Of a stretch of 64,000 nt of DNA, positions 26,185 through 44,941 are shown one piece after another (within the stretch, counting starts at the first letter, position 1; each line of letters begins with the position of its first letter). The stretch is from Alphaproteobacteria bacterium. Lineage in GTDB: Bacteria > Pseudomonadota > Alphaproteobacteria > Bin95. Location: the NCBI GenBank assembly GCA_963665325.3, contig OZ224045.1, positions 864,001 through 928,000 of the forward strand, in the 5' to 3' direction. The position numbers and the translations under genes were made by a program. The notes below the pieces were generated by a model. It saw only the letters and a program-made list of their open reading frames with translations. It had not been told where the DNA came from and did not search any database.

Positions 26185-26240
26185 GGATAAGCCCCGGCGG
26201 CAATCTCCCGCCCCGACATAAAGGTGAATGTAAGGCAGAA

Positions 26241-26262
26241 AAATAAAGCCTCGGCTGTATTC
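26241..26262. promoter_or_regulatory. Putative MntR/DtxR-type operator AAATAAAGCCTCGGCTGTATTC
   Basis: Imperfect palindrome upstream of the metal ABC operon, resembling the enterobacterial MntR box as recalled (AAACATAGCN4GCTATGTTT). Confidence 0.5.
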
Positions 26263-26320
26263 TTGCGTTCATCGGCGGCGAAGGGCATGGTGCGCCCCGC
26301 CCGAGATAGAGAGAAACCCG

Positions 26321-27331: not shown

Positions 27332-27343
27332 GCCGGGCCGGCG

Positions 27344-28138
27344 ATGCAGGACCGTTACGCGGGCGATGTCGGGGACTTCGGTAAATTCGGCCTTCTCCGT
27401 GCTCTTTGCGGGACGGATTTCCGACTCGGCGTGCTTTGGTATCGCAATGACCGCGATCCGCCGGGCGAGGATGGAAGACACATCGGCTATCTGGACAAGA
27501 TCGAGGAGTACGGGAATTGCGACGCCCCGCTCTTCGAGCTCATGCGGAAGGTAGTGGGCGAAAAGCGTTCGATAGACATAATCGAGTCCATCGGCGTACT
27601 CCCCGAGACTACCGAGTACCATTCGACGAGGTTCGAGGAAACCGGGCGCCGGAATTCCTGGATCGCGGACGGCCTGAAGAAAGTGGCCGGATGCGATCTG
27701 GTGTTCGCGGACCCCGACAACGGCCTCGAAGTAGGCAGCGTACTCTCCGATGACCCGGAAGCCGTCAAATATGCCTTCTATGCCGATCTCGTTCCCGTCT
27801 GGAAACGCGGGCAGAGTCTGATCGTATATCAACACGGGAACAGAAATAAGCTTGTCGAGCGGCAAATCGAGGAGCGCCTCAGGGCCTTGCGCAAGAGATT
27901 CTGCAACCCGCCGCCTTGCTTCATCGCCCTTCGGTATCGCCGCGGCACGGCCAGAATGTTCTTTATACTGGCGCAGCCGAAGCACAGGGACCGTATCGCG
28001 AACCGGTGCCGCAACTTCATGGCGTCCCCCTGGGGCAGGAAAGGACATTTCACCTGGCCGGACGCTATGCGCGGAACGGCAATCGAAACATGCGCTGCGA
28101 GCGGACAGGATAGGGCGCGGCAGGGAGGCACGGTATGA
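27344..28138 (+). CDS. Hypothetical protein, possible methyltransferase-fold (DLVFADPDNG)
   Basis: 264 aa ORF, lower GC than flanks; YAGDVGDFGKFGLLRAL N-terminus. Confidence 0.65.
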   Translation: MQDRYAGDVGDFGKFGLLRALCGTDFRLGVLWYRNDRDPPGEDGRHIGYLDKIEEYGNCDAPLFELMRKVVGEKRSIDIIESIGVLPETTEYHSTRFEETGRRNSWIADGLKKVAGCDLVFADPDNGLEVGSVLSDDPEAVKYAFYADLVPVWKRGQSLIVYQHGNRNKLVERQIEERLRALRKRFCNPPPCFIALRYRRGTARMFFILAQPKHRDRIANRCRNFMASPWGRKGHFTWPDAMRGTAIETCAASGQDRARQGGTV

Positions 28139-28373
28139 ACAGGCGGTTGACCGCGATTGTCGAACGGCGGGATGGCAACGGTTATGTTGCCCTGTGCGCG
28201 GACGCGGATATCGCCAGCTAGGGAATACCGTGCCCGAGGCGCGGGACGCTCCGGCGGAAGCCCTGACCCTGTTCTTCCAAACCGCCGACGCCGGGAAAAT
28301 CCGGCGTGCCCCGCCCGGAATTCGAGTGGCGACCGGGGAGGCGGCCGTGCAGGATGCGGGCGAAGTATGGTAA
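28135..28373 (+). pseudogene. HicB-family antitoxin pseudogene
   Basis: MNRRLTAIVERRDGNGYVALCADADIAS* (TAG 28219-28221), then a frameshift to GNTVPEARDAPAEALTLFF; matches the HicB-like pattern LTAIIEREGDGYVALCPELDIASQGDT. Confidence 0.75.
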
Positions 28374-28412
28374 GGAATGCAATACGGCGCAGACGAAAGA
28401 GGTAGCGAAGCG

Positions 28413-28637
28413 ATGCTTGCAGTCAGGTTGCCGGCCGATGTGGAAGCGCGACTCGATTCGTTGGCGAAGGCAACGGGTCGAACCAAGTCCTTTTATGCCC
28501 GTCAGGCGATCTTGCAGCATCTGGACGACCTTGAAGACCTTTATATCGCCGAACAACGGCTGCGCGACTATCGCGACGGCAAGGAAGACACGGTGCCGCT
28601 GGATGAGGTGATGCGGCGCCATGGTATGGCAGATTGA
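28413..28637 (+). CDS. Ribbon-helix-helix antitoxin (RelB/StbD-like)
   Basis: MLAVRLPADVEARLDSLAKATGRTKSFY...LDDLEDLYIAE. Confidence 0.88.
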   Translation: MLAVRLPADVEARLDSLAKATGRTKSFYARQAILQHLDDLEDLYIAEQRLRDYRDGKEDTVPLDEVMRRHGMAD

Positions 28638-30004: not shown

Positions 30005-31558
30005 TTGACCGACGAGAGCGTCGAGACCCTCTACGCCCGGTTCGGGCCCGCTTACCGGTGGCTCGCGACCTTCACCGGCATGACGGCCTCCTTCACCATG
30101 GTGCTGACCGGCACGGTGGTGGCGGTCGCGGTGCCCGACGTGATGGGCGCCTACGGCGTCGGGCAGGACCGGGCGCAGCTGCTGACCACGGGCTTCATCG
30201 TCGCCATGACGGCGAGCCAGCTGCTGAACGCCTGGTTCGTCGCGCGCTTCGGCCAGCGGCACACCTTCCTCATCGTCATCGCGCTGTTCTTCGCCGGCGG
30301 GCTGATGGCCGCGCTCGGGCCGACGCTCGACTTCATCATCGTCGGGCGGGTGGTCCAGGGCTTCGCCTCGGGCGTGGTCCAGCCGCTGGTGATGGTCACC
30401 GTCTTCCAGGTGTTCCCCGCCAACCGGCGCGGCATGGCCATGGGCATCTACACGATGGCGCTGGCGATGGCGCTCGGCGTCGGGCCGGTCGTCGGCGGCG
30501 TCACCATCGACCTGCTCTCCTGGCGGCATATCTTCGTCATCACGCTGCCCTTCGTCGCCGTCTCCTTCTTCCTGGGCATGGTGTTTATGCCGCAGGTCCG
30601 CCCGCGCGGGCCCTTCCCGCGTTTCGACTGGTCGGGCTACGCGCTGCTCTGCGTGGCGCTGTTCTGCCTGATGTCCGTGCTCTCCACCGGGCTCCGGGTC
30701 GGCTGGACCTCGGACACGATCCTGTTCCAGACGGCGCTCGGCGCGGCCTGCGGGGTGCTGTTCCTGGTCTCGCAGATGCGCGTCGACGCCTCGCTGCTGG
30801 ACCTCTCGCTCTTGCGCAACAAGGCGTTCGCCTCGGCCGTGTGCATCGCGATCGTGTTCGGCGCCGGCAATTTCGCCACCAGCTACGCCATCCCCGTGTT
30901 CGGCCAGCTGGTGCAGAACCAGACGGCGACCGAAGCCGGCCTGCTGCTGCTGCCGGCGAGCCTGCTGGTCGTGGCGATGCTGCCGCTGACGGGCCGCGCG
31001 TCGGACATCGTGCCGACCTGGATCCCGGTCATGGGCGGGCTGCTCTGCTTCGCCGCCGGCGCGGCGCTGCTGTCCGTTGCGGACGCGAACACGCCCTACT
31101 GGTCGCTCGTCCTGTTCGCCGGCATCAGCCGCTTCGGCATGGCCTGGATCAACCCGGCGCTGATGACGGCCGCGCTCTCCGCCCTGCCGCAGGACCGGCT
31201 CAACCAGGCGGGCGGCGCGATCAACTTCTTCCGCCAGCTCGGCGGCGGCACCGGCACGGGGGTGATCGTGCTGGTGCTGGAATCGCGCATGCTGGTCTAT
31301 GCCGAGGCGCTGGCGGTGACGCAGACGCCCGATAACGCCGCCTCGCGCGATCTGCTCCAGGGCCTCGGCATGCTGCTGGACCGGGCCGGGCTGCCGGAGG
31401 CGGAGACGAGGCATGCGGCGCTCGACTGGCTGGGCCAGGCCGTCTATGCGCAGGCCACCGCCTTCAGCTTCCAGGACGGCTTCCTCGTGCTCGCCATGCT
31501 GTTCGTGCTGGCGCTCGTCCCGGCCTGGGCGCTCGCCCGCGTCAACCGCTTCCGGTAA
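30005..31558 (+). CDS. DHA2-family MFS efflux transporter
   Basis: 14-TM-like hydrophobic pattern, GRVVQG, GPVVGG, RQLGG. Confidence 0.88.
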   Translation: MTDESVETLYARFGPAYRWLATFTGMTASFTMVLTGTVVAVAVPDVMGAYGVGQDRAQLLTTGFIVAMTASQLLNAWFVARFGQRHTFLIVIALFFAGGLMAALGPTLDFIIVGRVVQGFASGVVQPLVMVTVFQVFPANRRGMAMGIYTMALAMALGVGPVVGGVTIDLLSWRHIFVITLPFVAVSFFLGMVFMPQVRPRGPFPRFDWSGYALLCVALFCLMSVLSTGLRVGWTSDTILFQTALGAACGVLFLVSQMRVDASLLDLSLLRNKAFASAVCIAIVFGAGNFATSYAIPVFGQLVQNQTATEAGLLLLPASLLVVAMLPLTGRASDIVPTWIPVMGGLLCFAAGAALLSVADANTPYWSLVLFAGISRFGMAWINPALMTAALSALPQDRLNQAGGAINFFRQLGGGTGTGVIVLVLESRMLVYAEALAVTQTPDNAASRDLLQGLGMLLDRAGLPEAETRHAALDWLGQAVYAQATAFSFQDGFLVLAMLFVLALVPAWALARVNRFR

Positions 31559-31589
31559 AAGCGGAACTCCCGAAGACCGGGAGAGGGGC

Positions 31590-33194
31590 GTGCCCAGTTC
31601 AGCGGATCTGATTGCCCGGCGGCTGGCGGCGGCCGGCTGCCGCCATGCCTTCGGCATTCCGGGCGGCGAGGTGCTTGCCCTCATGGACGCGCTCGACCGG
31701 GCCGGCATCCGGGTCGTGCTCGCCCGGCACGAGACCTGCGCGGGCTTCATGGGCGAGGGCGTCCACCACCGCGACGGCGCGCCTGCGATCCTGGTCGTCA
31801 CCATCGGCCCGGGCCTCGCCAACGCGGTGAACGTCATCGCCAATGCCTGGCAGGACCGCGTGCCGATGGTGGTGCTGACGGGCTGCGTCTCCACCTCCGA
31901 GCAACATGGCTACACCCACCAGGTGCTCGACCATGCGAGGCTGGTGGAGCCCATCGCCAAGGCGGCGTTCCGCGTCGAGGACGGCATGGCGGCCATGCTC
32001 GCAGACCGGGCGGTCGCCATCGCCACGGAAGGCCGGCCCGGCCCGGTGCTGCTGGATGTGCCCATCGACGTCCAGACCCGCGAACAGCCCGCGCCGCCGC
32101 CCCCGGAGCCCGCGCCCGCGCCGGTCGGCCCGGCCGAGGGCCCGGCGCTGGACGAGGCCCGGTCATGGCTTGCAGAGGCCCGCCGCCCGCTCGTCATCGC
32201 CGGCCTCGACGTGCTGAACCAGGAGGCGGAGGCGGCCGTCGCGGCGTTCTGCCGGCGGTTCGGCGCGCCGCTCGTCACCAGCTACAAGGCGAAGGGCGTG
32301 CTGCCGGAAGACGACCCGCTGGCGCTCGGCGGCGCCGGCCTCAGCCCGCGCGCGGACGGCCGCCTGCTGCCGGTCGTCGCGGCGTCGGACTGCGTGGTGC
32401 TCGCCGGCTACGACCCTATCGAGATGCGCATCGGCTGGCGCGACCCCTGGGCGGACGGCGCGCGCGTCATCGACCTGCCGGCCGTCGCCGGCGGTCACGG
32501 CATGCACCGGGCCCGGCTCGTGTTTCCGGGCGATGTCGCCGCCGGCCTGGAGGCGCTCGGCCGGGGGCAGGAGCCGCGCGAGACCTGGGCCGGGGGCGAG
32601 CCGGCGGCGGCAAGCGCGGCGCTCCGGGCCGAAAGCCGGCTCGACGAGGACTGGGGCCCGGCGGCGGTCGTCGATGTGCTCCGCCGGTCGCTACCGCGCG
32701 ACGCCGTGGTCACCACCGACAGCGGCGCGCACCGGATCGTGCTGAGCCAGCTCTTCGAGTGCTACCGCCCGCGCGGCCTGCTCCAGTCCACCGGGCTCTG
32801 CACCATGGGCTGCGCGGTGCCGCTCGCCATCGGGCGCAAGCTGGCGGAGCCGGACCGCGCGGTGGTGGCGACGATAGGCGACGGGGGCCTGGAGATGTTC
32901 CTCGGCGAGCTCGCCACGCTGCGCGACCTGAAGCTCGCCATCCCCATCCTCGTCTTCGTGGACACGCAGCTCGGCCTGATCGAGCTGAAGCAGCGCACAT
33001 CCCAACTCCCGAACCTCGCCGTGGACTTCGGCGCCACAGACTTCCCCGCCGTCGCAAGGGCGCTCGGCGGCGAAGGCGTCGCCGTCAGCGACCGCGCCGG
33101 CCTCGCGCGGGAGATGGAGGCGGCGTTGTCGCGAGACCGCTTCACGATTATCGCTGCCGAGATCGGCCGGCGGGCTTATGACGGGCGGATTTGA
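31590..33194 (+). CDS. Thiamine pyrophosphate-dependent enzyme (acetolactate synthase-like)
   Basis: FGIPGG, RHE, GPGLAN, PGPVLLD, TMGCAVP, GDGG. Confidence 0.9.
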   Translation: MPSSADLIARRLAAAGCRHAFGIPGGEVLALMDALDRAGIRVVLARHETCAGFMGEGVHHRDGAPAILVVTIGPGLANAVNVIANAWQDRVPMVVLTGCVSTSEQHGYTHQVLDHARLVEPIAKAAFRVEDGMAAMLADRAVAIATEGRPGPVLLDVPIDVQTREQPAPPPPEPAPAPVGPAEGPALDEARSWLAEARRPLVIAGLDVLNQEAEAAVAAFCRRFGAPLVTSYKAKGVLPEDDPLALGGAGLSPRADGRLLPVVAASDCVVLAGYDPIEMRIGWRDPWADGARVIDLPAVAGGHGMHRARLVFPGDVAAGLEALGRGQEPRETWAGGEPAAASAALRAESRLDEDWGPAAVVDVLRRSLPRDAVVTTDSGAHRIVLSQLFECYRPRGLLQSTGLCTMGCAVPLAIGRKLAEPDRAVVATIGDGGLEMFLGELATLRDLKLAIPILVFVDTQLGLIELKQRTSQLPNLAVDFGATDFPAVARALGGEGVAVSDRAGLAREMEAALSRDRFTIIAAEIGRRAYDGRI

Positions 33195-33292: not shown

Positions 33293-33739
33293 ATGGTTGA
33301 CATTGTGGACAGCAAGCGGCGCAGTGAACTTATGGCCGGGATCCGCGGCCGCGACACCGCTCCCGAACTCGCTGTCCGCCGCATCGCCCACCGCATGGGC
33401 TTGCGTTTCCGTCTCCACCGGAAAGGCCTACCTGGCCGCCCCGACCTTGTTTTCCCGAAGCACCGTCTCGCCGTCTTGGTGCACGGCTGTTTCTGGCACC
33501 TGCATGAGGGCTGCCCATTCTCCCACATTCCCAAAACGCGTACGGCCTATTGGGCCGACAAGTTTGAACGGAATGTCGCTCGCGACAAGCGCAACCGGGA
33601 AGCGTTGCAGGGCCTTGGATGGCGGGTTGTCCTTATTTGGGAATGCGAAGTCGGTGACGAAGAAGCGGTACGGCAGCGGTTGGCGGCGGCGACCGGACGC
33701 GGGGAATCGGGCTTTGCCGCTGCCGTCGCAATATGCTAG
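33293..33739 (+). CDS. vsr: Very short patch repair endonuclease
   Basis: MVDIVDSKRRSELMAGIRGRDTAPE, LPGRPD, HGCFWH, GWRVVLIWEC. Confidence 0.95.
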   Translation: MVDIVDSKRRSELMAGIRGRDTAPELAVRRIAHRMGLRFRLHRKGLPGRPDLVFPKHRLAVLVHGCFWHLHEGCPFSHIPKTRTAYWADKFERNVARDKRNREALQGLGWRVVLIWECEVGDEEAVRQRLAAATGRGESGFAAAVAIC

Positions 33740-33751
33740 GAGGCGCTGCTC

Positions 33752-34993
33752 ATGGAAGCGCCCGCGCAACCCGATTCGCGCCCGTCCTTCGTAGATGCGT
33801 TCGCAGGCTGCGGCGGCTTGAGCCTCGGCCTCAAGCGCGCAGGGTGGCAGGGGCTCTTTGCTATCGAGAAAGACCCCAACGCATTCCAAACCCTGTCGGC
33901 GAACTTCCCCACGGGCGACGGCCCGCTCTCCTATGCATGGCCTGAGGGAATAGAACGGCAGACTTGGGACATCCGAGAGTTGCTGTCGCAGCGCCAGCAG
34001 GTATTGAAGGGCCTTGAGGGCAAGGTGGACCTACTAGCGGGCGGGCCGCCTTGTCAGGGGTTTTCGCAGGCCGGACCGAGGCAGGCGGGCGACCCCCGAA
34101 ACACCCTCTTCGAGGCTTATCTGGAACTTGTCGAACTGCTGCGCCCGCGTTTCGTGCTCGTGGAGAATGTCCGGGGGTTCGCATCGGATTTCAAAGCGCG
34201 GGAATCCGGACCCGTCGAGAACTTTGCCGAGGCGCTGAAGCGAGGCCTTGAAGGGCAATATGACATTATGCCGGCATTCATCCGGGCCAGCGATTTCGGG
34301 GTGCCGCAGATGCGGCCCCGTTTCTTTCTGGTCGGGGCCCTCAAGGGAATGGAGGTGAGCGGAGGAATCGAAGCCTTTTTCGGTGACCTGCGGGAAGCAG
34401 CCCCTGGTTTCCTGTCAGAACGGGGGCTTCCAGAAAAGCCTAATGCCAAGGATGCAATCGGCGACCTTGAGACAGAGATAAACGGCACGATACTTTGCGA
34501 CGAATGCAAGGGATTCGAGAAGATCGGCTACAAAGCACCACGTACGGCCTACCAAAAGGCCATGCGCGACGGCTACAAGGGTGTCCCCTCTTGCACGCGA
34601 CTGGCCCGCCACAGGCCACATATCCGCGAGCGTTTTGCTTCCATCATTGCAGCGTGCAAGGAAGAGAAACGCCTCAATACATCGCTTTCGGCCAAGATGC
34701 GGTCCGACTACGGGCTCAGCAAATCAGGCCTCAGAGTCATGGACCCGAAAGCGCCTACACCAACTATTACCAGCCTGCCCGACGACCTTCTGCACTATTC
34801 CGAGCCGAGAACCCTAACCGTACGCGAAAATGCGCGGCTCCAATCCTTTCCCGATTGGTTTGAATTCAAGGGCAAATACACGACTGGTGGCGAACGGCGG
34901 CGCAACGAAGTCCCTCGGTTCACGCAAGTAGCAAATGCAGTTCCTCCCTTATTGGCGGAGCAAATTGGCCTAGCTCTCTTGCGAATACGCTAA
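33752..34993 (+). CDS. dcm: C5 DNA cytosine methyltransferase
   Basis: FAGCGG, GGPPCQGFS, ENV, PQMRPR, RENARLQSFPD, ANAVPP motifs. Confidence 0.95.
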   Translation: MEAPAQPDSRPSFVDAFAGCGGLSLGLKRAGWQGLFAIEKDPNAFQTLSANFPTGDGPLSYAWPEGIERQTWDIRELLSQRQQVLKGLEGKVDLLAGGPPCQGFSQAGPRQAGDPRNTLFEAYLELVELLRPRFVLVENVRGFASDFKARESGPVENFAEALKRGLEGQYDIMPAFIRASDFGVPQMRPRFFLVGALKGMEVSGGIEAFFGDLREAAPGFLSERGLPEKPNAKDAIGDLETEINGTILCDECKGFEKIGYKAPRTAYQKAMRDGYKGVPSCTRLARHRPHIRERFASIIAACKEEKRLNTSLSAKMRSDYGLSKSGLRVMDPKAPTPTITSLPDDLLHYSEPRTLTVRENARLQSFPDWFEFKGKYTTGGERRRNEVPRFTQVANAVPPLLAEQIGLALLRIR

Positions 34994-35937
34994 AGGCTTG
35001 GAGACCCGAGTTCATTCCGCAACACTTCACAAATGGCCTCCAACGCTCGCCGATGGATGCGGAGCTTCTTTCGAAAGCTCTGCATCCATTCGTCATCGAT
35101 TACTTCGACATCGCCTCGCCGTGTAGGACGTAAAATAATCTGACCATCGCTAGCAAATTCCTCGTTAGCATGCGCTAACAGGTTTCGATTGTCTATAATG
35201 TCTTGCTTGTACGACTGCAGGAAAGTATCTTCTTTCTCGAAATCTGCGTCTACTACTTTAGTCATCCTTACAATGGCACGGTATCTGTCGTAGGATGAAA
35301 ACAAACCAGTGTCCAAAACAACAGGAATTAATCCGTCCACTAATTTACCTCTTAACCGAGCAGAACGGCCCTCCATATTTTTGACAAGTTTCTCCGTCGT
35401 CCTCCTCTCCACTCGTAACACTCTCGGATTATTCAAGTTCAAAATAAATACAATCGCTTTTTCCATAATTATATCCATCTCCGCAACTTCTGCCATAGCA
35501 ATACCCCGCATCAGTGTAAGGTCTACCGCCTTTCCAATCACAGTATCTGCAATTCCTTTAAGAGGATCACTCAAATATCGCCTCTCTTCTACAAAAACTC
35601 CCGAAACTCCGTGTTCCAGAAGCTCTTTTTGCAACTCCCTGGTCGGAATTCCGGAATAAAACACCATATCTGTATACGGTAGAGTAACCCTTAGGCGTCT
35701 CGCCACCTGAGCACCATCAATGTCGTCATGGCCGAGATTGTAGTCGATCATAACGAGATTGAAACTCTTCCCCTTCCCCTTTTCGAGCTCCTGCAGTGAC
35801 TCTTCGGATATTTCATCCAAGTAACGCGAACTCAGGCTAAATCCCTTCGAGTCTAGGTGCTCTTCGAGAGTTCTGATTGCTTGTTGAAGACCTTCGGGAT
35901 TATCGTCCACAATCAAAAGAGAAAAATCGAGCTTCAT
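34990..35937 (-). CDS. Response-regulator receiver domain fused to HEPN-like C-terminal domain
   Basis: LIVDD, VMIDYNL (phosphoacceptor Asp), VFYSG; C-terminal NRNLLAH (Rx4H). Confidence 0.75.
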   Translation of the reverse strand: MKLDFSLLIVDDNPEGLQQAIRTLEEHLDSKGFSLSSRYLDEISEESLQELEKGKGKSFNLVMIDYNLGHDDIDGAQVARRLRVTLPYTDMVFYSGIPTRELQKELLEHGVSGVFVEERRYLSDPLKGIADTVIGKAVDLTLMRGIAMAEVAEMDIIMEKAIVFILNLNNPRVLRVERRTTEKLVKNMEGRSARLRGKLVDGLIPVVLDTGLFSSYDRYRAIVRMTKVVDADFEKEDTFLQSYKQDIIDNRNLLAHANEEFASDGQIILRPTRRGDVEVIDDEWMQSFRKKLRIHRRALEAICEVLRNELGSPSL

Positions 35938-38207
35938 GTCGGTATCCTAAGCACCATGTGGGCACCGCTAAGCAGTTCGGACTGAGGCTCCTTTGGTGCC
36001 TCAACAAGCCCGCCCATGCCCTCCACCACCTGCTTGACGTGGTAAAGGCCAAGGCCAGAGCCATCTGTAGTTGTAACACCTTTTTCGAAGACGCGGCTTA
36101 CGGGCTCCATGGAAGACGGCCAGCCGGGTCCGTTGTCGCCAACGGAAATCCTGAGTTCAGGTTCTGGGCCTTTCCCGACATCTAAGGCAAATCCAATGTT
36201 GGTCGCGCGCGCTTTGGCCGCATTCGAAACGAGATTGTCGATAACAATACCGATCTCGATTGGGCGGAACGAGCGCGAGAAAGGCTTGCTATCACTTCCA
36301 AATTCCACCGCGATGCCCTGTGGAGCCCACAGAGCGGACACTGTTTCGATATAGTCGCGTATAAAGGCGGTGAGATCGGCTTTCACTTTCGCCGATTGCT
36401 GCCGGTATCCGCCTTTGGTTGCAAACCGCGCGGCCGTCAGGATTTGGCTGTTCCTGAATGAGACCTGCTCTAGGAAGTCCACCCAGTCGCCTTTTGTGAG
36501 GGCCGCACCGTTCCTAAGCTTAGCCATCATCCGGCGCACGCCCTCGTGGACATCCGAGGCATGCATAATGATCTGGTGGTGGAGATTGAGAATCGTGTCT
36601 TGGTCTAGGGACGAAACGGCTACTAGGAACTCGCTGCGTTTGCGTTCCTCCGCATATCTGGCCTCCGCAACTGTCTTAGCCCTAGATGCCGAGGCTGCTC
36701 TTCCCTCCGCCCGGCGTTCGGCCTCCCGTGCTTCTGCTTCAGCAGCTTGAAGAGCCTTGATACGCTTCTTGGCGTCGTCCACGCGAGCAAGAAGGACGTT
36801 GTCACCGGTTCTCTCGGCCAACAGTTCGAGGGCTTTTAGAGATGTTTCAAACGCTGACGACTTCGCGTCCACAATGCGCACAATATCTGGATTGTACTCC
36901 ACAAGGTCAATGCCATCGGTAGCAGCTAATCTGGACACCAGTTGTCCTATTTTAGCGCTGCTCTCGTCGAGCATCATCCGCGAAGTGTCTTGAATGTCTT
37001 TATCAAATTTATCCGCCCAAGAGATATCTACGACATATCGTTCAAGGCGTCTAATGCATTTCGCTATAAAGCAGTCTATCAGCTCTTCGACTTGTTGTGT
37101 GCGGATAAGCCCCTGGTCCCGGCTCGTTGCCTCGACAAACCCATCGACGCCTTTGATTTGTACGTGGCCAATCAGGTCCCGAGTTCCCAGAAATCGTCTC
37201 ATCCCTTGCTGTTTTCGATGAAGCAAGCGAAAAAAGTCGTCTGTTTGATCTCCAATTGGAAATACCCGAAAGCCATTACGAAATAGGAAAATTGATCCGA
37301 AGGCAACACTTTGTATTCCCATCCGATGGGCGAATAACGTTTTGGCTCCACGGTTCAAGAAATAGATTTCTGAAGTGAATTGCGACTTTGTCAATTTTTC
37401 GTACTGATTCTTTTCCCTGATTCTATAAATTGTTTCGCCGCGATCCGTGAGATGGGTTTGGATGATTGCGCCGTTGTCTACTATTTCTACCTTTATTGTG
37501 GTTGTTCGTTGTTTCAACACATTAAGAATTTCGTTAGTAACCTCACCACTCAGGGATGATTTTCCTTTGATGTGCAAATTTATGCGAAACTTGGTCTCTT
37601 CGTCAGAAAATGGATTGATTAACTTCGCAAGTTCCCGGCGCAATTTTTGAAAATCCTCGTCGCTCCATGCGTGCCGCAAAGAGGTAATTTCAAGTATCGT
37701 TCCTTTCTTGGTGTGCGGAAACATGTCGAATGAGGGAAGGTTGACGTCTTCCCGAATTTCGACTTCGATATCCCCAAATTCTTGCTTGGAATTTTGTTCG
37801 TATCTTGTCCAGTCAATGTCCAATACTTGTACGGGGCCAATATGAGAGCGAGAATTGAGTACTAGACGACTTCCAAGGCGATCACACGAAAACCTCCCGA
37901 TGCCCTTAGCGCCGGCAAAAGGGCGACTTCGGTCTGCAACCTTGTCACGGTAGTCTTGATCCTCAGTGCCGTCTCGCTTTGCGGAATAGGCAACAAATAG
38001 CCATTTGTCGAGAATGTCGCGTCGGGACATTCCCTTGCCGTTGTCCGCGATGACAATCCTGTCATCCTCAAAGCAAATGTGGACAGAGTCAGCATGGGCG
38101 TCAAAAGAATTCTTGACCAGTTCAAAGACGGCTACGAAGTCGTTGGTGATCAGCTCACGTCCGATCAGGTCCTTCAACCCGGTACTGACCCTGAACGCTT
38201 TCTGCAT
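35934..38207 (-). CDS. MORC/MutL-type GHKL ATPase fused to histidine kinase
   Basis: N-terminal ELVKNSFDA, DNGKGM, GAKGIGRF, RNGFRV; coiled coil; NLHHQ H-box; C-terminal NLVSNA, DNGPG, GSGLGL. Confidence 0.85.
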   Translation of the reverse strand: MQKAFRVSTGLKDLIGRELITNDFVAVFELVKNSFDAHADSVHICFEDDRIVIADNGKGMSRRDILDKWLFVAYSAKRDGTEDQDYRDKVADRSRPFAGAKGIGRFSCDRLGSRLVLNSRSHIGPVQVLDIDWTRYEQNSKQEFGDIEVEIREDVNLPSFDMFPHTKKGTILEITSLRHAWSDEDFQKLRRELAKLINPFSDEETKFRINLHIKGKSSLSGEVTNEILNVLKQRTTTIKVEIVDNGAIIQTHLTDRGETIYRIREKNQYEKLTKSQFTSEIYFLNRGAKTLFAHRMGIQSVAFGSIFLFRNGFRVFPIGDQTDDFFRLLHRKQQGMRRFLGTRDLIGHVQIKGVDGFVEATSRDQGLIRTQQVEELIDCFIAKCIRRLERYVVDISWADKFDKDIQDTSRMMLDESSAKIGQLVSRLAATDGIDLVEYNPDIVRIVDAKSSAFETSLKALELLAERTGDNVLLARVDDAKKRIKALQAAEAEAREAERRAEGRAASASRAKTVAEARYAEERKRSEFLVAVSSLDQDTILNLHHQIIMHASDVHEGVRRMMAKLRNGAALTKGDWVDFLEQVSFRNSQILTAARFATKGGYRQQSAKVKADLTAFIRDYIETVSALWAPQGIAVEFGSDSKPFSRSFRPIEIGIVIDNLVSNAAKARATNIGFALDVGKGPEPELRISVGDNGPGWPSSMEPVSRVFEKGVTTTDGSGLGLYHVKQVVEGMGGLVEAPKEPQSELLSGAHMVLRIPT

Positions 38208-38527: not shown

Positions 38528-38923
38528 TCAGACCCGCCGCCCCCGCGCAAGGCGTTCCTTCCGCTGCAAGCCGTGGCGCTCCAGGAAGCGCTGTACCGTG
38601 GCGGCGCTGACGGTCAGGCCCTCGACCGCCAGCGCGGCCCGCAGCGCCGGGATGGTTAGCTTCGGGCGCTGCTTCAGCAGGCGGAACACCAGTGCGCGCG
38701 CCGGCTCGATCCGAGACGGCGGGCGTCGGCGCGGGTCCGCCCGGACATTGCCGCGCTGGCGGTAGCGCTGGACCCACCGATGGACGCTGGTCTGGGCGAC
38801 CTCGAATTTCAGCGCCGCTTCGCGAAAGCTCATGCCCCGCTCGAGCACCGCCGCCACCGCCCGGCGGCGCAGGTCCTCGCCTACCGCCTTGCCCGGCTTC
38901 GGCCCCGCCAATTCGTCCGCCAT
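38528..38923 (-). CDS. IS630-like N-terminal HTH protein without DDE domain
   Basis: EDLRRRAVAAV...SFREAALKFEVAQTSVHRWVQR...VSAATVQRFLERHG. Confidence 0.7.
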   Translation of the reverse strand: MADELAGPKPGKAVGEDLRRRAVAAVLERGMSFREAALKFEVAQTSVHRWVQRYRQRGNVRADPRRRPPSRIEPARALVFRLLKQRPKLTIPALRAALAVEGLTVSAATVQRFLERHGLQRKERLARGRRV

Positions 38924-39172
38924 CCTGTCCGCCCTCCTTTCCATCGCCGTTTCCGCCGGCCGCCGTTCCAGCCTGTTTGCGTTGTCTGCGCGGGCCGCGG
39001 GCCGCTGCCGTTCCAGGCCCGACGATTTAATGCCCTCCGCCGCGCGCACCTGTCCGGTTGAGCGTCCGCCCCTCGATACAGCTCCCAAATCCCTCGCGAG
39101 GCGCCGCCCGGCGCCCCGGCTCACGTCCACGTCATCGCCTCGTTTCCTCGCGGTTGGCACGGGTATTGGGGG

Positions 39173-39201
39173 TATATAGGGAACAAACAGGCAAGATGCA
39201 A
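39173..39201 (-). promoter_or_regulatory. Putative sigma70 promoter TTGCAT-N17-TATATA
   Basis: Exact 17-bp spacing in an AT-rich patch, pointing toward the IS630-like HTH gene. Confidence 0.4.
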
Positions 39202-39315
39202 GGAATTTGAGGAATTTATGCCGGATTTCGGGGTGCGAGACTCCGTCCGCCGCTTCCGCCGGGGCGCTGCGTCACGCTCCGCCCCCAATGTCGCCAGGCC
39301 TGTTCCCGTCCTTTC

Positions 39316-39402
39316 CGTCATGCCCGGACTTGTTCCGGGCATCTCCCTCGGGGCCACTGCGATGGCGGAAATGGATGCCCGGATCAAAGCCGGAGCATGT
39401 CG
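39316..39402. repeat. Alphaproteobacterial REP-like palindromic element
   Basis: GTCATGCCCGGACTTGTTCCGGGCATC ... GATGCCCGGATCAAAGCCGGAGCATGTC inverted arms. Confidence 0.75.
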
Positions 39403-39659
39403 TGATCGAATCTCGTAACTGACTAGACTCATTGAAGAATTCACCCTTGAATTGATGGTGTGGAAGCCATAATCCTAAATCAGTCATCAAGTCGAAAGCA
39501 GAATTTTTCAATATCAGGTCGGCCGTCGGCAGCGTCTGGCAACGCATTACCATTTTCGAGCGTCGAGGCCAATGTAACCGTTCGGGTCCCGGGGGATCGT
39601 AGCCTCCCACTGATTTTTCTCACTGGTAACTAAGTCGCGCATGCGCTACCGTCTCGCGC

Positions 39660-41825
39660 ATGGCGGTTCTCGAGGCGGATTTCGTCACCGACCTGACGCC
39701 GGCCGAGGGCGGCGACATGCTGTGGTCGCTTCCCGTCGTGGCGCCGGCGCGCGAGCCGCTCGACTGGGCGTCTCTGCTTGAAGAGGCGGAGGCGCGCGTC
39801 AAGGAGGAACGGGGCCGCGCGGCTGTGGCGGAGTTGCGCCGCGAGGAACTGCGCCGGTCGGAGAGCGATGCCCGAGCGCTTGCGGACTCGCTGACGAGGC
39901 AGCTCGACACCTGCCGGTTCAAGCTCAAGACGGCGACCTCGAAGACCGCGTCGCGGGCCGCGAAGGGGTTGGAGCGCAGGGTCGAGTCCCAGGACGACGA
40001 AATCGCCGATCTTCGCCTCACGCTGCGCAGGTCTCACGAGCGCCAGGAGCGGATCGAAAAACGCCACCAGGACGAGATCAACTGGCTGAAGCAGGACATC
40101 GACCGGGAGCGCTCGCGGATCGCGAAGGTGTACCGCAAGGGCGAGCGCGTGGCCGGGTCGCTGCGCAAGCAGTTCGACCGGCAGCTCGCGGCGGCCAGGC
40201 GGCTGGTGGAGACCCGGGAGGGCACGATCGCATGGCTGCGCGAACGCAACGCCCGGATGCGGGCGGCGATCGTGCGGGCCACGGAGCTGATCGCCTCGCT
40301 GCGGGAGAAGAATACCCGGCTGCGCGCCGAGGTGCGGGATCTGAAGGACGAGAACGCGGCGCTGGCCTCGCAGGTCGAGACGCTGCAAGCCCAGCTCGAC
40401 AAGCTGCGCTCGACCCGGAGCGTCCTGTCGAAGGCGCTCTACGGCAGCAGGAGCGAGCAGCAGAAGAGGCCGGGCACCGGGCGCAAGCGCGGCCAGCAGC
40501 GCGGCGCCGCCGGGCACGGCCGCACCCAGCGCCCCGGGCTCGGGCAGAAGAAGGAACCGCGCGACCCGCCTGAGGAAGCGCGTGTGTGTCCGCGTTGCGG
40601 CAAGCCCTACGCCGCCAACGGCGAGCGCTGCACCACTCTCTTCGAGATCGATGTCGAGGCCTACGAGAACACCATCGTGCGGTCGCGCTGGCGCCACAGT
40701 TGCGACTGCGCCTCCGCGCCGCGGGAGGTGACCGCGCCGCCGGTGACGCGGCTGTTCGAGACCACGCCCTACGGGATCAGCGTATGGACGTGCATGCTCT
40801 ACGAGCGCTTCGTCTGCTGCCGTCCCCTGCATCGGGTCGCGGCCTGGCTGGCCGACATGGGGCTGGCGATCTCGCCGGGGACCCTGGCCGACAGCATCAA
40901 GCGCTTCGTGCCGCTGTTCGAACCGTTGGCCGAGGCGATCCTCGCGCACCAGAACGAGGCCGCGCTGCGCCACGCCGACGAAACATCCTGGCGCGTTCAG
41001 GCGTATCGCGAGAAAGGCCGGTCGAGCCGCGCCTGGTTGTGGATCTCGGTCAGCAACGATGCCGTCTACTTCCACATCGACCCCTCGCGCAGCGCCGAGG
41101 TCGCGATGAAGCTGTTCGGTTCGGTCAAGGATACCGTGGTCCTGGTCTGCGACCGGTTCAGCGCCTACAGGAAGCTGGCTCGCGAACTCGCCGGCAAGGT
41201 GATCCTGCAATGGTGCTGGGCACATCAAAGGCGCTCGTTCATCGACCGTGCCGCCGGTCATGTGCGGCTCAGGCGCTGGTGCCAGAGATGGATCGAGCGG
41301 ATCGCGCTGATCTACCGGCTGAACGACGATCGGCTGGAGCATTACGACCCCGCTCACCCCCTCGAACGACAGTCGCCGGCGTTCGATATCGCGCACGCCA
41401 AGCTGAAGAAGGAGGTCGACGAGCTGTTCGCAGCCGCCGAAGCGGAACTGGCCGGGCTGACGGACAGGGCGCGCAGGGCCAAGCCGCTGCGCTCGCTTCT
41501 CAACCACCGCGGGGGGCTGTGCGTCTTCGTCGACAAGCCGTTCGTGCCCATGGACAACAACCGCGGCGAGCTCTCGTTGCGCTTCGCGGTTATCGGACGA
41601 CGGCTCTCGTTCGGCTCCGACAGCGAGAAAGGCGCCGGGTTCACGGCGACGATGTACTCGGTGGCTGGCACGCTGGCGATCAACGGCATCGACGTCCGGC
41701 GCTGGCTCAGGGAATGGCTGACCGCGTGCGCGGAAAACGGCGGCAATCCGCCGGACGACCTCTCGCCCTGGCTGCCGTGGTCGATGAGCGAGGAGCGCCG
41801 GCGCGAACTCACGGCGTCGGGATGA
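39660..41825 (+). CDS. tnpC: IS66 transposase with long N-terminal coiled coil
   Basis: CPRCG zinc finger, HADETSW, VCDRFSAY, CWAHQRR, DNNRGELSLR. Confidence 0.92.
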   Translation: MAVLEADFVTDLTPAEGGDMLWSLPVVAPAREPLDWASLLEEAEARVKEERGRAAVAELRREELRRSESDARALADSLTRQLDTCRFKLKTATSKTASRAAKGLERRVESQDDEIADLRLTLRRSHERQERIEKRHQDEINWLKQDIDRERSRIAKVYRKGERVAGSLRKQFDRQLAAARRLVETREGTIAWLRERNARMRAAIVRATELIASLREKNTRLRAEVRDLKDENAALASQVETLQAQLDKLRSTRSVLSKALYGSRSEQQKRPGTGRKRGQQRGAAGHGRTQRPGLGQKKEPRDPPEEARVCPRCGKPYAANGERCTTLFEIDVEAYENTIVRSRWRHSCDCASAPREVTAPPVTRLFETTPYGISVWTCMLYERFVCCRPLHRVAAWLADMGLAISPGTLADSIKRFVPLFEPLAEAILAHQNEAALRHADETSWRVQAYREKGRSSRAWLWISVSNDAVYFHIDPSRSAEVAMKLFGSVKDTVVLVCDRFSAYRKLARELAGKVILQWCWAHQRRSFIDRAAGHVRLRRWCQRWIERIALIYRLNDDRLEHYDPAHPLERQSPAFDIAHAKLKKEVDELFAAAEAELAGLTDRARRAKPLRSLLNHRGGLCVFVDKPFVPMDNNRGELSLRFAVIGRRLSFGSDSEKGAGFTATMYSVAGTLAINGIDVRRWLREWLTACAENGGNPPDDLSPWLPWSMSEERRRELTASG

Positions 41826-42703
41826 CCGGCGCGGTCGAGTGCCGCTACCACGGCCGAGACTTCACCGCCGAGGAAATGGCGCTGCTGCGCGCGCTCATCG
41901 CCGGTCCCGCATCGCTCTCCCGCCGCGCCCTGTCGATCGAGTTCTGCCGGCGCATCGGCTGGATCAAGCCCGACGGCGGGCTCAAGGATATGATGGCCCG
42001 CGTCACCATGCTCGCCATGCACCGCGACGGCCTCATCGAACTGCCGCCGCCCAGGTGGCAGCGGGGACGGCCCAGGCCCATCGTCTTCGGACCCGACACC
42101 GAGCCGCCGCTGTTCCCCGCGCCCACGACCCTCGACGAGGTCCGTCCGCTCGACTTCCGCGCCGTCGTGCACAGCACCCGGGAAGGCAGGCTCTGGAACG
42201 AGTTCGTCGCCCGCTACCATTATCTCGGATACAAGACCCTGGTCGGCGCCCAGATGCGCTACGCCGTCCACGACCGAAACGGCTGGCCCGTCGCCATGCT
42301 CGGCTTCTCCACCGCCGCCTGGAAGCTCGCCCCGCGCGACAACTTCATCGGATGGTCGCCCGAAAAGCGCGAGAAGAACCTCCCGCTCGTGGTCGACAAC
42401 CCGCGCTTCCTGATATTGCCGTGGATCCAGATCCCCAACCTCGGATCGCACATCCTCGCCATCGTGCGCCGGCGCCTGCCCACCGACTGGACCGAGCGCT
42501 ACGGCACCACCCCCGTGCTGATCGAAACCTTCGTCGAGACCCCGCGATACACCGGCGCCGTCTACAAGGCGTCGGGCTGGACCCGCGTCGGGACCACCCA
42601 GGGCCGTGGCCGCTACGACAGGCATACCAAACGAGCTCAGCCGAAAAAGGACATCTGGCTCCGCCCCCTCCGAAAAGATTGGCAACGCACCCTCAATCGG
42701 TAG
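41822..42703 (+). CDS. DUF4338 (Druantia DruA-like) protein, IS passenger
   Basis: YHYLG, VDNPRFLILPW, NLGSHIL, DWTERYG..PVLIETFVE, GAVYKASGW; ATGA overlap with tnpC. Confidence 0.85.
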   Translation: MTGAVECRYHGRDFTAEEMALLRALIAGPASLSRRALSIEFCRRIGWIKPDGGLKDMMARVTMLAMHRDGLIELPPPRWQRGRPRPIVFGPDTEPPLFPAPTTLDEVRPLDFRAVVHSTREGRLWNEFVARYHYLGYKTLVGAQMRYAVHDRNGWPVAMLGFSTAAWKLAPRDNFIGWSPEKREKNLPLVVDNPRFLILPWIQIPNLGSHILAIVRRRLPTDWTERYGTTPVLIETFVETPRYTGAVYKASGWTRVGTTQGRGRYDRHTKRAQPKKDIWLRPLRKDWQRTLNR

Positions 42704-42838
42704 AATCACACCCGGTCGCGACCAGGTGCGGGTAAGCATGCCAACAAGCGGATAACCTCCTCCTCATCCCCCGGGACCCGAACGGTTACAGGCCAATTCG
42801 AGGCCGAATTGGGTGAGAACCGATTCATTCGTATACGT

Positions 42839-43669
42839 TCACGTCTCGTCCAGAGCGATCCTTACGCTGTTTTCTCCATGGGTGATGAGCTTTCTGTCCT
42901 CTTGGGGCCCTTCGGCGAAGACGACGCCCTGGAGGATCAGAGCCCTTCTCGCGCTGCCGTCCATCGGTAACTCGATTGTCCAGACCGCACTGCCGCTTAC
43001 GCCACCATGGGTCCGGGGAATCCACGGATCGTCGCTCGTAATGGCGTACTCACCGTAGTCCCAACCATCCTCGTCTGTCGCCTGTTCTGCTGTCCTGCCT
43101 ATCAGCATGCCGTGGGCGACCACCATGTTCTCGCCCAGGTCGCTCGCGGCGTGGACGAATCCGAAAACAATTCCGATCTGGCATACTTCGCCCTCGAACG
43201 CATCGCGCGGTCTCGCCCTGTTGCGGAAGACGGCACCAAGTGCCTCCATCCTCTCCACATCTTCTCCCGACAAGGGCATCCAGCCGATATCCGGACCCAA
43301 CGGCCCTTGGTTGGCTTCTCCCCGGCCTGTCATGCCCGCGCCTTCAATCCTGATCCAGTTGACCAGTTCTCGGTCCTGGGCCGGGAGCACGAGGATGTTC
43401 TGCCTGGCCTTGACGGCGCCGATGACGTGCCCGGCCGTCAGAATGCCATGCTGGCCATCGGTTCTTCTGACAAACGTTCCGGAACCGATTGGTGTCAGCT
43501 GCCCCTCCGCGCCGTAACCGATGATCGTCGTGTATCGGCGTACGAGATCGGCCAGGATCCGCGGCGCAGTCTCGGGATTCAACTGGTCCTCCTGGAAGAT
43601 ACCGGTCCTCGCAAGGTAGCCCGAAACTTCGGACCAGCCGGCGGTCACGATCGCGGGTTCTGGAGCCAT
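42839..43669 (-). CDS. Trypsin-like serine protease, no signal peptide
   Basis: GSGTFV, LTAGHV (His), PDIG (Asp), GGVSGSAV (Ser). Confidence 0.75.
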   Translation of the reverse strand: MAPEPAIVTAGWSEVSGYLARTGIFQEDQLNPETAPRILADLVRRYTTIIGYGAEGQLTPIGSGTFVRRTDGQHGILTAGHVIGAVKARQNILVLPAQDRELVNWIRIEGAGMTGRGEANQGPLGPDIGWMPLSGEDVERMEALGAVFRNRARPRDAFEGEVCQIGIVFGFVHAASDLGENMVVAHGMLIGRTAEQATDEDGWDYGEYAITSDDPWIPRTHGGVSGSAVWTIELPMDGSARRALILQGVVFAEGPQEDRKLITHGENSVRIALDET

Positions 43670-44941
43670 GATGCATTCCGTTCTGTTCGGTGGCGGGTCA
43701 TACTGGGAGATGGTGGGCGATTGGAAATCTGAGGCCGGCGGGTTTGGGCGAAGTCTATAGGGATGCGGTGCTCTTCGGGCGGCGATGGCGTTGTGCAACG
43801 TGATGTGGCGGGATGGGCATGGTCTAGCCGGATGTATTCACGTCGATTAAATCGGAGGGTTTGGAGCGCGCAGGGGTGGGCGTTCGGCGCCGCTACGGTG
43901 CCGGGATCTGAAGTTTTCGAAGTCGAAGTTGAGGGTTGAGCCGGCTCGGGTTGGTGGGGCACGCCGCCCCGTCGGTCAGGGTCCCGAGGTCGCGAACCGG
44001 CCCGCCAGCAGCCGGAACAGGGCGGCGTCGGGGCAGGCCGAGGTGAAGTGGATGCGGATGCGCGCGGCCTTCTCGACGACGCGCGCGCCTATCTTGAGCA
44101 GTTTCTGGCGGAGGGCTGCGAACTCGGCCAAGTGGAGCGGCATCCTGCGCGGCACGGCATCGCGGAGCGCGAGCATCAGCCAGTAGGCGGCGATGTGCAG
44201 GACCAGCCTGAACTGGTTGGCGAGCGGGCCCTGGCAGGAGGTGCGGTCGGAGGCGAGCTGGGCCTTGTGCAACTTGATGAGGTTTTCCGCCTGGCCGCGG
44301 GCGCAGTAGATCCCTTCGTAGAGATGGCGGGGCTCGCCGGTGAGCGAGGTGACGATGTAGCGCGCGTCGAAGCCGCGGGTCGTCGCCTCCAGCCGGGCGA
44401 CCACGCGGCGCGCGCGGTTCCACGAGCCGGCGGCGTAGGCGAAGTCGTCGAAGCCGCGGACCTTGTCGCCACCGGCTTCGGCGTGGCGCGCCCGGACCTC
44501 CTCGCCGGACTCGTCGGCGAGGCGGTGCAGCACCGCATTGCCGGCCAGGCCGAAGATATAGTCGACGCCGTTGTCCTCGCACCATGCCATCGCCTCGGTC
44601 CGACCGTAGTGGCTGTCGCCCCGGAAGGTGAGCCGGGTGCGCGGCCAGTGCCGGCGGATGCGCCGCGTCAGATGCTTGAGCATGGTGCGGACCTCGACCC
44701 CCGACGGCGTCTTGCCGGGGCGCGGGAGAACCGCCACCGGCCTGCCGCTCTCGACATGGTAGACGTGCACCGGGAGGAAGCAGCGGGTGTCATGGAAGCC
44801 GTTGAACAGCGAGAGTTGCTGGTGGCCGTGCACCGCGTCGCAGGTCTCGTCGATGGTAACCGTTCGGGTCCCGGGGGATGAGGAGGAGGTTATCCGCTTG
44901 TTGGCATGCTTACCCGCACCTGGTCGCGACCGGGTGTGATT

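Follow-up and report, generated by a model that had tools for sequence, protein, structure and literature searches.

In a 64,000-nt stretch of DNA from an Alphaproteobacteria bacterium (assembly GCA_963665325.3, contig OZ224045.1, positions 864,001 to 928,000; referred to here as the window), a cassette of four tightly packed genes was analyzed at 33293-38207. The genes form two convergent pairs, with a Vsr repair endonuclease and a C5 cytosine DNA methyltransferase on the forward strand facing a receiver protein and a double-GHKL histidine kinase on the reverse strand. The methyltransferase, the kinase and the receiver protein recur together and diverge together in hosts of at least six phyla, no conserved nuclease gene accompanies them, and the window copy was acquired horizontally. 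On comparison of the proteins, the cassette is a sister branch of the published HEF_HK/Response_reg_2 class; its kinase is shorter, and its output differs and can be recognized as an effector type. We regard it as evenly balanced whether the whole works as a restriction-modification (R-M)-like cassette in which the restriction arm is a signaling pathway.

Genes and protein domains of the cassette

The Vsr very-short-patch repair endonuclease gene (33293-33739, + strand) encodes 148 amino acids (aa) and is followed by the gene of the 413-aa C5 methyltransferase (33752-34993, +). On the opposite strand lie the genes of the 315-aa receiver protein (34990-35937, -) and of the 757-aa kinase (35934-38207, -). 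The stop codons of the methyltransferase (TAA, 34991-34993, +) and the receiver protein (TAG, 34992-34990, -) share 2 nt, and an ATGA at 35937-35934 joins the kinase stop to the receiver start. The GC content was 0.45-0.56 across 34.5-38 kb, which holds the kinase and receiver genes, versus 0.70-0.76 at 29-33 kb in the left flank. An earlier note on this DNA, made from the sequence alone, had described the four genes with their coordinates, both overlaps and the low GC content, all of which were borne out by open reading frame (ORF), overlap and GC analysis. Its calls of Vsr, of a C5 methyltransferase and of a MORC/MutL-type GHKL ATPase fused to a histidine kinase also held in profile searches.

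The Vsr protein matched PF03852 (E 7.2e-27), TIGR00632 (137.6 bits against a cut-off of 97.85) and the PADLOC Vsr model (E 1.6e-32). Because the TIGR00632 match begins at profile position 1, the start is best placed at the ATG at 33293. The methyltransferase matched PF00145 (E 4.8e-52), TIGR00675 (136 bits against a cut-off of 100.65) and PADLOC MTase_II (E 7.5e-80), and its translation contains FAGCGG at residues 17-22 and a PCQ motif with Cys101. A second 5-methylcytosine (m5C) methylase of 502 aa is encoded elsewhere in the same genome (L052, G000:C1:2092-2095 kb), beside a RadC-like JAB protein and unlinked to the cassette.

The kinase begins with a GHKL ATPase of the MutL/Hsp90/MORC type (residues 1-211; 37575-38207, -). 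PF13589 matched residues 24-150 with E 1.3e-20, and weak matches were obtained to MutL (TIGR00585, E 8.6e-7), sacsin and Hsp90 models. The ATPase motifs are present as motif I (E29, N33), motif II (D55-x-G57-x-G59) and motif III (G99-x-K101-G102-x-G104), and a PDB sequence search with the N-terminus returned TRAP1/Hsp90 (E 2.6e-6) and MutL/PMS1. The best curated match, over residues 15-211, was NF050001, the BbrUII/HgiDII restriction enzyme family (E 3.4e-23); it scored 82 bits against a cut-off of 550 and covered only profile positions 13-198 of 659, leaving the nuclease part unmatched. By these profiles, the kinase N-terminus most resembles the ATPase part of those restriction enzymes that are partnered with C5 methylases.

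The middle region (residues 212-639; 36291-37574, -) matched no Pfam family at E<=10. It is composed of a conserved globular part containing FRNGFRVFPIG (309-319), an Ala/Glu/Arg-rich coiled coil (about 470-525) and a helix resembling a dimerization and histidine phosphotransfer (DHp) helix, with invariant L542 and H544 (H544 codon at 36576-36578). The globular region at about 212-400 is common to plasmid-borne homologs and PF19191-type kinases. The protein ends in a catalytic ATP-binding (CA) domain (residues 651-756; 35940-36257, -; PF02518, E 1.5e-19) with an N box (D657-N658...N662...K665) and G boxes (G693, G716-x-G718-L-G720-L), and the C-terminal third returned histidine kinases in the PDB sequence search, the best being 7z8n (E 2.6e-11, profile positions 484-772). 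The N-terminal Bergerat-fold residues, L542 and H544, and the C-terminal N and G boxes were invariant in all 22 aligned kinases, so both ATPase modules and the phospho-acceptor site look functional. From its GHKL part, leaving aside the S5 domain by which MORC-like proteins are defined, we read the protein as an ATPase of the paraMORC type in which a kinase transmitter has taken the place of the nuclease end. A stand-alone HATPase_c_3 protein of 676 aa is also encoded in this genome (L048, C1:1589-1592 kb), where it adjoins an aldehyde dehydrogenase gene and is unlinked to the cassette.

A PADLOC check, which the earlier note had proposed, was made with the PADLOC-DB v2 models. The methylase and Vsr gave generic matches, the kinase gave only weak matches to REase_II (E 5e-10, N-terminus) and TmtA (E 1e-3), and the receiver protein matched 0 families; thus no model specific to a system recognized the kinase or the receiver protein.

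The receiver (REC) domain occupies residues 1-118 of its protein (35584-35937, -) and was assigned by PF00072, Foldseek and conserved residues. It has an acidic pocket (D11/D12), a predicted phospho-acceptor D65 (35743-35745), S95, and R119 at the position usually held by Lys. D11, D65, S95 and R119 were invariant in 30 of 30 aligned sequences and D12 nearly so. The AlphaFold model of the full-length protein (predicted local distance difference test score, pLDDT, 81) contains a (beta-alpha)5 domain, and Foldseek with this model returned receiver domains only, with E 1e-4 to 4e-6, for example 2rdm (TMt 0.71) and CheY 5chy. Since D11, D65 and S95 are invariant across the 30 members, the domain fits a phosphorylatable receiver. 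The family is large and uniform: of 3402 candidates, 343 matched at E<=0.001, and those listed, 120 in number, had lengths of 309-405 aa.

The C-terminal helical domain of the receiver protein (residues 119-315; 34993-35583, -) contains the motif R251-N252-x-L254-A255-H256 at 35170-35187. In 21 sequences, with identities down to 19%, the R, N, L and H of this RNxLAH motif were invariant and A255 nearly so. When the C-terminal 195 residues were modeled alone (pLDDT 86.6; predicted template modeling score, pTM, 0.80), the order was a long helix 1, helix 2, a helical insert, helix 3 with R-N-x-L-A-H at its end, then a beta-hairpin and a long final helix, and the motif closed the helix at 126-138 (domain numbering). 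HEPN domains are described as four-helix bundles with an insert between helices 2 and 3; their Rx4-6H motif falls where helix 3 ends or the helix 3-4 loop begins, its Arg is followed by a polar residue, and in Csx1 a hairpin comes next (PMC3710099). The position of the window motif at the close of helix 3 and the polar Asn after its Arg agree with the definition given there.

Structural comparison of the C-terminal model by VIA-align placed HEPN proteins at ranks 1, 3, 4, 6, 7, 12, 23, 25 and 46 of the 50 entries listed. These included 1wwp (Z 8.6, root-mean-square deviation (rmsd) 3.8, 103 residues aligned), 1ylm (Z 8.1, rmsd 4.1, 111 aligned), 7ae2 (Z 7.7, rmsd 4.3, 111 aligned), 1jog (Z 7.3, rmsd 4.3, 113 aligned), 4rgp (Z 6.6, rmsd 3.8, 115 aligned), 3o10 (Z 6.3, rmsd 3.9, 109 aligned), 2hsb (Z 6.2, rmsd 3.8, 101 aligned) and 8vz6 (Z 5.7, rmsd 6.3, 152 aligned), together with 5yep (Z 7.2, rmsd 3.8, 106 aligned), which we take to be a HEPN protein. 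The labels of the entries other than 5yep were drawn from entry titles or from PMC3710099. Among the 21 members, 26 sub-threshold Pfam matches included four HEPN families, HEPN_Apea (E 0.0056), HEPN_Swt1 (E 0.0067), HEPN_MAE_28990 (E 0.051) and HEPN_RiboL-PSP (E 0.064), each through one member and all below the gathering score.

A homodimer was predicted for the C-terminal domain with an ipSAE of 0.72, compared with 0.01 for the best control. Of proteins solved as pairs of one chain, 20 of 30 attained this score, and of those solved as single chains 1 of 23 did; these counts are rough owing to a custom alignment. The runs agreed in at least 91% of contacts, with a partner pLDDT of at least 79, and the predicted interface holds R27, R134 and R172 (domain numbering), namely the motif Arg and two other invariant arginines.

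Several results count against a HEPN fold. No significant sequence match to any HEPN family was found by Pfam in the 21 members, and the HEPN_Swt1 match of the window protein itself covers the last helix, not the motif. Foldseek with the C-terminal model gave no match at E<=0.001, and a PDB sequence profile search with the domain returned nothing relevant, just a nanobody at E 2.4. In the VIA-align list, non-HEPN bundles such as 5lm1 (Z 8.4) were interleaved with the HEPN proteins; Z-scores below about 13 are common among unrelated helical bundles, so the observed range of 5.7-8.6 lies within that level. The homodimer result may mirror likeness, because solved HEPN dimers exist. The best ESM Atlas clusters for the domain were unnamed (scores 0.88-0.89) and uninformative.

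Taken from the invariant motif, the modeled topology and the mid-range structural Z-scores, the C-terminal domain is probably HEPN, and we put its reading as a HEPN RNase at about two in three. Of the receiver-HEPN effector proposed in the earlier note, the receiver with an invariant Rx4H motif therefore stands, whereas the HEPN part is only probable and has no significant sequence match. With a profile of the domain, 950 representatives of clusters at 50% identity were collected at E<=0.001, of which 576 also passed E<=1e-10. Most of the 150 representatives listed were 290-335 aa long with the domain at about 117-310, and shorter ones resembled fragments; by these lengths and positions, the domain is essentially confined to its place behind this receiver.

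Recurrence and relation to known systems

A scan for the receiver family with one genome per species yielded 22 loci, of which L022 was a weak receiver-only match, so that 21 loci were counted. The kinase gene adjoined the receiver gene, immediately upstream, in 21 of the 22, and its frame overran the first base of the receiver match by 3 nt in 20/21. An m5C methylase was adjacent in 19/21 loci (convergent in 16, co-directional upstream in 3). The constant frame offset and the adjacent methylase indicate that the gene arrangement is not due to chance. Methylase orthologs were present in 18/21 loci with at least 395 residues aligned at 41-68% identity, the methylase of L012 matching in two pieces, and Vsr was present in 8/21. 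At least six phyla are represented among the hosts, which comprise Binatia, Alpha- and Gammaproteobacteria, Acidobacteriota, Longimicrobiales (Gemmatimonadota-type), Bacteroidota, Cyanobacteria and Melainabacteria. In a separate sample of 400 Pseudomonadota genomes the HEPN-like domain was found in 3, with kinase and methylase adjacent in 3/3. The neighborhood survey of homologs suggested in the earlier note thus upheld the linkage to a methylase in both sets.

Identities to the window proteins co-varied over 20 loci, with Spearman coefficients, inflated by kinship, of 0.89 for kinase and methylase and 0.93 for kinase and receiver protein. This co-variation indicates that the three genes travel as a unit, and the co-divergence of methylase and kinase resembles that of cognate R and M genes. 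One copy (L017, 7910-9746) appears to be decaying: its receiver gene is split, with residues 1-150 and 138-308 matching about 0.9 kb apart, and it has no adjacent methylase. In a plasmid collection there were only half-length relatives at 24-31% identity and no full-length match.

The flanks of the 21 loci were scanned over 106 ORFs, and no recurrent nuclease gene was found; the commonest extra family was ResIII, in 5/21. The window module itself contains no restriction endonuclease. A search of the own genome for the NF050001 family gave no BbrUII/HgiDII-type enzyme above the cut-off, the best match being the kinase itself. These results agree with the statement of the earlier note that a restriction endonuclease is missing, and an unlinked nuclease of another family may be encoded elsewhere in the genome. 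Other R-M or defense-type genes flanked 9/21 loci (type I R-M parts, an N6_N4 methylase with ResIII, PDDEXK_13, and an AbiEii-like AAA_21 protein), integrases flanked 2/21, an ArdC anti-restriction gene lay beside one (L006), and several loci stood amid metabolic genes.

The closest published relatives are the HEF_HK kinases (HATPase_c_3 + DHp + HATPase_c), which pair with Response_reg_2 proteins (Bellieny-Rabelo, Pretorius & Moleleki 2021, PMC8011034). That paper reports 91.6% linkage over 644 regions and enrichment of C5 methylases and Vsr, proposes an origin from paraMORCs, and describes the Response_reg_2 partner as having no known domain beyond the receiver. The window kinase shares the three-domain plan and is taken to be soluble likewise, and in both systems the kinase-receiver pair adjoins an m5C methylase and often Vsr. 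Alignment by hhalign of the window kinase family with PF19191-bearing kinases gave full-length homology (probability 99.9%, E 1.6e-36, 711 columns) and set H544 on the invariant His of the HEF motif. True PF19191 members were found in 9 of 401 Pseudomonadota genomes; in the 8 loci examined (L032-L039), an m5C methylase was adjacent and upstream in 8/8 and Vsr was present in 5/8.

The two groups differ in several respects. The window kinase has about 760 aa against about 1000 aa and an HQ rather than an HE H box; its receiver partner has 315 aa and a HEPN-like output, whereas Response_reg_2 proteins have about 570-720 aa and an unrelated C-terminal domain; and the gene order is mostly convergent in window-type loci and co-directional in theirs. 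Alignment of the two receiver families by hhalign was insignificant (probability 14%). The kinases are thus homologous end to end while the C-terminal domains of their partners are unrelated, on which the assignment to a sister branch is based. As direct families, PF19191 and PF19192 were both rejected: PF19191 matched neither the middle region of the window kinase (E<=10) nor the own genome or 5 related kinases (E<=1), and PF19192 matched neither the window receiver nor the own genome (E<=1), with a faint match (E 0.24) in 1 of 5 divergent relatives. The Response_reg_2 partners at L032-L039 share a C-terminal domain of their own with an invariant G...C....CD (consensus YxLCVxPACD) and no Pfam match.

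A second comparison is with Ambrosia, which a preprint (10.1101/2025.09.30.679545) describes as a five-gene set of an XRE regulator, an N6-adenine methylase, a HATPase kinase, a REC protein with a wHTH (winged helix-turn-helix) and a type IV HNH nuclease. According to the preprint, Ambrosia defends Pseudomonas against phage, and mutation of the receiver Asp abolishes the defense. Compared by description only, both cassettes combine a DNA methylase, a histidine-kinase/Hsp90-like ATPase and a receiver; in contrast to Ambrosia as described there, the window has a C5 methylase, Vsr and a receiver fused to a HEPN-like domain, and neither XRE nor HNH. The novelty implied in the earlier note was therefore overstated. 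The architecture of kinase, receiver, C5 methylase and Vsr had already been described computationally (PMC8011034), and the related methylase + HATPase + REC + HNH system had been validated in the preprint; what is new here is a branch with a HEPN-like output.

The paraMORC ATPases of R-M operons, where they accompany cytosine methylases and Vsr, were defined by Iyer, Abhiman & Aravind (2008, PMC2292703), and VcSduA, a GHKL-nuclease of the paraMORC3 type, is reported as a validated phage defense protein (PMC12137116). Like these and the BbrUII/HgiDII proteins, the window kinase has an N-terminal GHKL module with intact Bergerat motifs near a cytosine methylase and Vsr; unlike them, it has DHp and CA domains in place of the C-terminal nuclease. 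The receiver output resembles the HEPN RNases treated in PMC3710099 (PrrC/RloC, MNT-HEPN toxins, Csm6) in its Rx4H with Asn after Arg, the location at the end of helix 3, the modeled insert between helices 2 and 3, the predicted homodimer, whose interface contains the motif Arg, and the R-M context, and differs in having no significant sequence match to HEPN families. No receiver-HEPN fusion was seen among the architectures consulted in that paper. Our search of the main texts of papers turned up neither tests of the HEF_HK class nor an earlier account of a receiver-HEPN fusion or of this branch.

A proposed signaling model and its alternatives

In the model that we favor, the C5 methyltransferase would constitutively mark the host genome, while the linked Vsr would repair the T:G mismatches that arise from deamination of 5-methylcytosine. 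The kinase would be a paraMORC-type GHKL clamp ATPase, soluble and dimeric, with the DHp helix (H544) and CA domain instead of a nuclease. If the clamp meets DNA that lacks the cognate methylation, for example that of a phage or plasmid or host DNA newly left unprotected, the kinase would autophosphorylate on H544, and the phosphoryl group would pass to D65 of the translationally coupled receiver protein. Phosphorylation would then change how the receiver domains hold two HEPN-like domains, forming a composite Rx4H site at the dimer interface, and the cleavage of RNA would lead to growth arrest or abortive infection. From the domain assignments onward every step is conditional, including the sensor input, the direction of the switch, the RNase activity and the defense phenotype. 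The full version, in which the GHKL clamp reads the mark of the co-inherited methylase and relays it from His to Asp to a response regulator that is itself a phosphorylation-gated HEPN RNase, is put forward tentatively, and we hold it less probable than the broader view of a cassette with a signaling restriction arm.

The scheme is in essence that of the earlier note, whose interpretation is thus supported in part. The linked Vsr genes imply that the host genome has been a target of the methylase on an evolutionary time scale, which makes methylation a plausible mark of self. The ATGA coupling together with the intact H544 and D65 point to phosphotransfer from the kinase to the receiver protein.

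Other observations speak against this signaling model. The main one is L007 (5638-9181), where kinase and receiver are intact and keep every invariant residue, but the convergent methylase is a frameshifted C-terminal remnant of about 75 residues beside an N6_N4 methylase/ResIII pair; no other close methylase copy was found in that genome at E<=1e-20. The kinase-receiver pair can thus persist without the methylase, at least for a while, which argues against an obligatory need for it. In Ambrosia, as described in the preprint, the methylase gives phage DNA no protection and the receiver is thought to act on transcription, so the self-marking logic is not general for cassettes of a methylase and a two-component system. 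The receiver match to PF00072 (E 4.5e-5) reached 24 bits, below the gathering score of 30.2, and the usual receiver Lys is replaced by the invariant R119. A role of the GHKL module as DNA binder or methylation reader is our proposal, and the experimental precedent, which comes from the other systems Ambrosia and VcSduA, is indirect.

Two alternatives, both unlikely, rank above the remaining ones. The cassette could act as a guard or backup, as PrrC does with EcoprrI, in which the kinase, instead of reading DNA methylation, monitors the methylase or a GHKL-bound state that is disturbed by phage anti-restriction or anti-methylase factors, and the HEPN domains fire as a second-line suicide. HEPN domains in R-M contexts are described as acting like PrrC, released upon an R-M block (PMC3710099); the tight co-inheritance of methylase, kinase and receiver suits a physical complex as well as a shared sequence specificity, and the ArdC anti-restriction gene beside L006 is in line with this reading. 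A phosphorelay, however, would be an unusual coupling for proteins already held in one complex, and L007 keeps the kinase-receiver pair without its methylase.

To a similar, low degree we consider a regulatory two-component system that serves as an epigenetic or R-M control device by tuning the expression or the activity of the methylase and Vsr, with the C-terminal domain as a non-toxic output that binds RNA or protein, either non-catalytically or in a transcript-specific manner. A role over R-M systems was suggested by Bellieny-Rabelo et al. (PMC8011034), and control of transcription was proposed for the Ambrosia pair (10.1101/2025.09.30.679545). The overlapping convergent stops would permit antisense or 3'-end control of the methylase mRNA, and the sequence support for HEPN is weak. 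Yet the receiver protein has no DNA-binding output domain, the invariant RNxLAH, in which a polar residue follows R, is the signature of catalytically active HEPN RNases, and many loci lie amid defense genes and mobile elements.

It is still less likely that the sensor reads a cue other than DNA, such as nucleotide pools or a phage protein held in the GHKL clamp, with the methylase and Vsr as a co-traveling orphan modification unit. Sensing of nucleoside triphosphates was speculated on by Bellieny-Rabelo et al. (PMC8011034), the Tiamat preprint treats the middle domains of Hsp90-like defense ATPases as presumed binders of infection signals, and the kinase N-terminus matches TRAP1/Hsp90 besides MutL/PMS1. 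Hitch-hiking, however, hardly explains why the methylase is adjacent in 19/21 and 3/3 loci of this branch and in 8/8 of the PF19191/PF19192 sister branch, or why it co-diverges with the kinase. A pure addiction module, in which methylation dilutes after loss of the cassette and a longer-lived kinase-RNase pair kills the cell with no meaningful phage defense, equals type II R-M addiction in its logic and suits the patchy spread across phyla, the strongly foreign composition and the IS or integrase neighbors, but it is quite improbable, because L007 lost the methylase and kept the kinase-receiver pair, the opposite of what strict addiction predicts, and the related Ambrosia and VcSduA defend against phage.

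The full version of the signaling model, if true, would make this kinase the first of the histidine kinases to sense DNA methylation and the pair the first two-component system whose response regulator is a nuclease; it would assign an effector logic to the whole HEF_HK/Response_reg_2 class and join restriction-modification and two-component signaling in one four-gene cassette. The published family of methylase-linked MORC-kinase/receiver pairs came without an identified output, which left its function beyond guessing, and this branch combines the same sensor kinase with a recognizable effector-type domain and its invariant Rx4H. The class thereby becomes experimentally tractable through point mutants at kinase E29, N33 and H544, receiver D65, R251 and H256, and methylase Cys101. 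The biochemical prediction is autophosphorylation that depends on DNA and its methylation, followed by phosphotransfer and RNA cleavage. The branch is large, as its 576 clusters indicate, and it is missed by the Pfam class models and the PADLOC models.

Foreign origin and surrounding sequence

The cassette is foreign to its host and was acquired horizontally, as indicated by the gap in GC content at third codon positions (GC3) to host genes, the flanking insertion sequence (IS) elements and the absence from 40 relatives. The GC3 was 0.70 for Vsr, 0.66 for the methylase, 0.47 for the receiver gene and 0.54 for the kinase gene, compared with 0.88-0.90 in flanking host genes; the left neighbor, a host thiamine pyrophosphate (TPP)-dependent enzyme gene (31413-33194), had a GC3 of 0.90. 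The cassette was absent from 20 relatives by DNA search, and the C-terminal-domain profile found no cassette in any of 40 relatives, of which 16 share the genus of the host, 8 its family and 16 its class. It is present as a single copy in its own genome.

No convincing direct or inverted repeats flank the cassette, and promoter-like sites (3 against 3.1 expected) and terminator-like sites (8 against 7.6 expected) were at chance level. Of the 5 sequencing runs listed from 2 studies, none was of RNA. A tRNA scan of the window gave no call near the cassette; the sole call, by ARAGORN, was a tRNA-like gene of 93 nt at 8501-8593 (-), with undetermined identity and a four-base anticodon (attt). A 770-aa ORF at 26174-28486 (-) had no Pfam match at E<=1e-4, and with the GC content lowered to 0.61-0.62 at 27-29 kb it is maybe another foreign gene.

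To the right of the module and outside it lies a cluster of IS elements (38528-47985), in which Pfam matches identified an IS630-type helix-turn-helix (HTH) fragment, two inverted IS66-family transposase genes and a DDE_Tnp_1_4 gene. The IS66-family transposase genes at 39660-42735 (+) and 44910-47985 (-) encode 721 aa each with identical Pfam scores, and each is trailed by a 298-aa ORF. The inverted pair encloses the DDE_Tnp_1_4 transposase gene (43976-44833), a layout like that of a composite transposon or nested IS elements.

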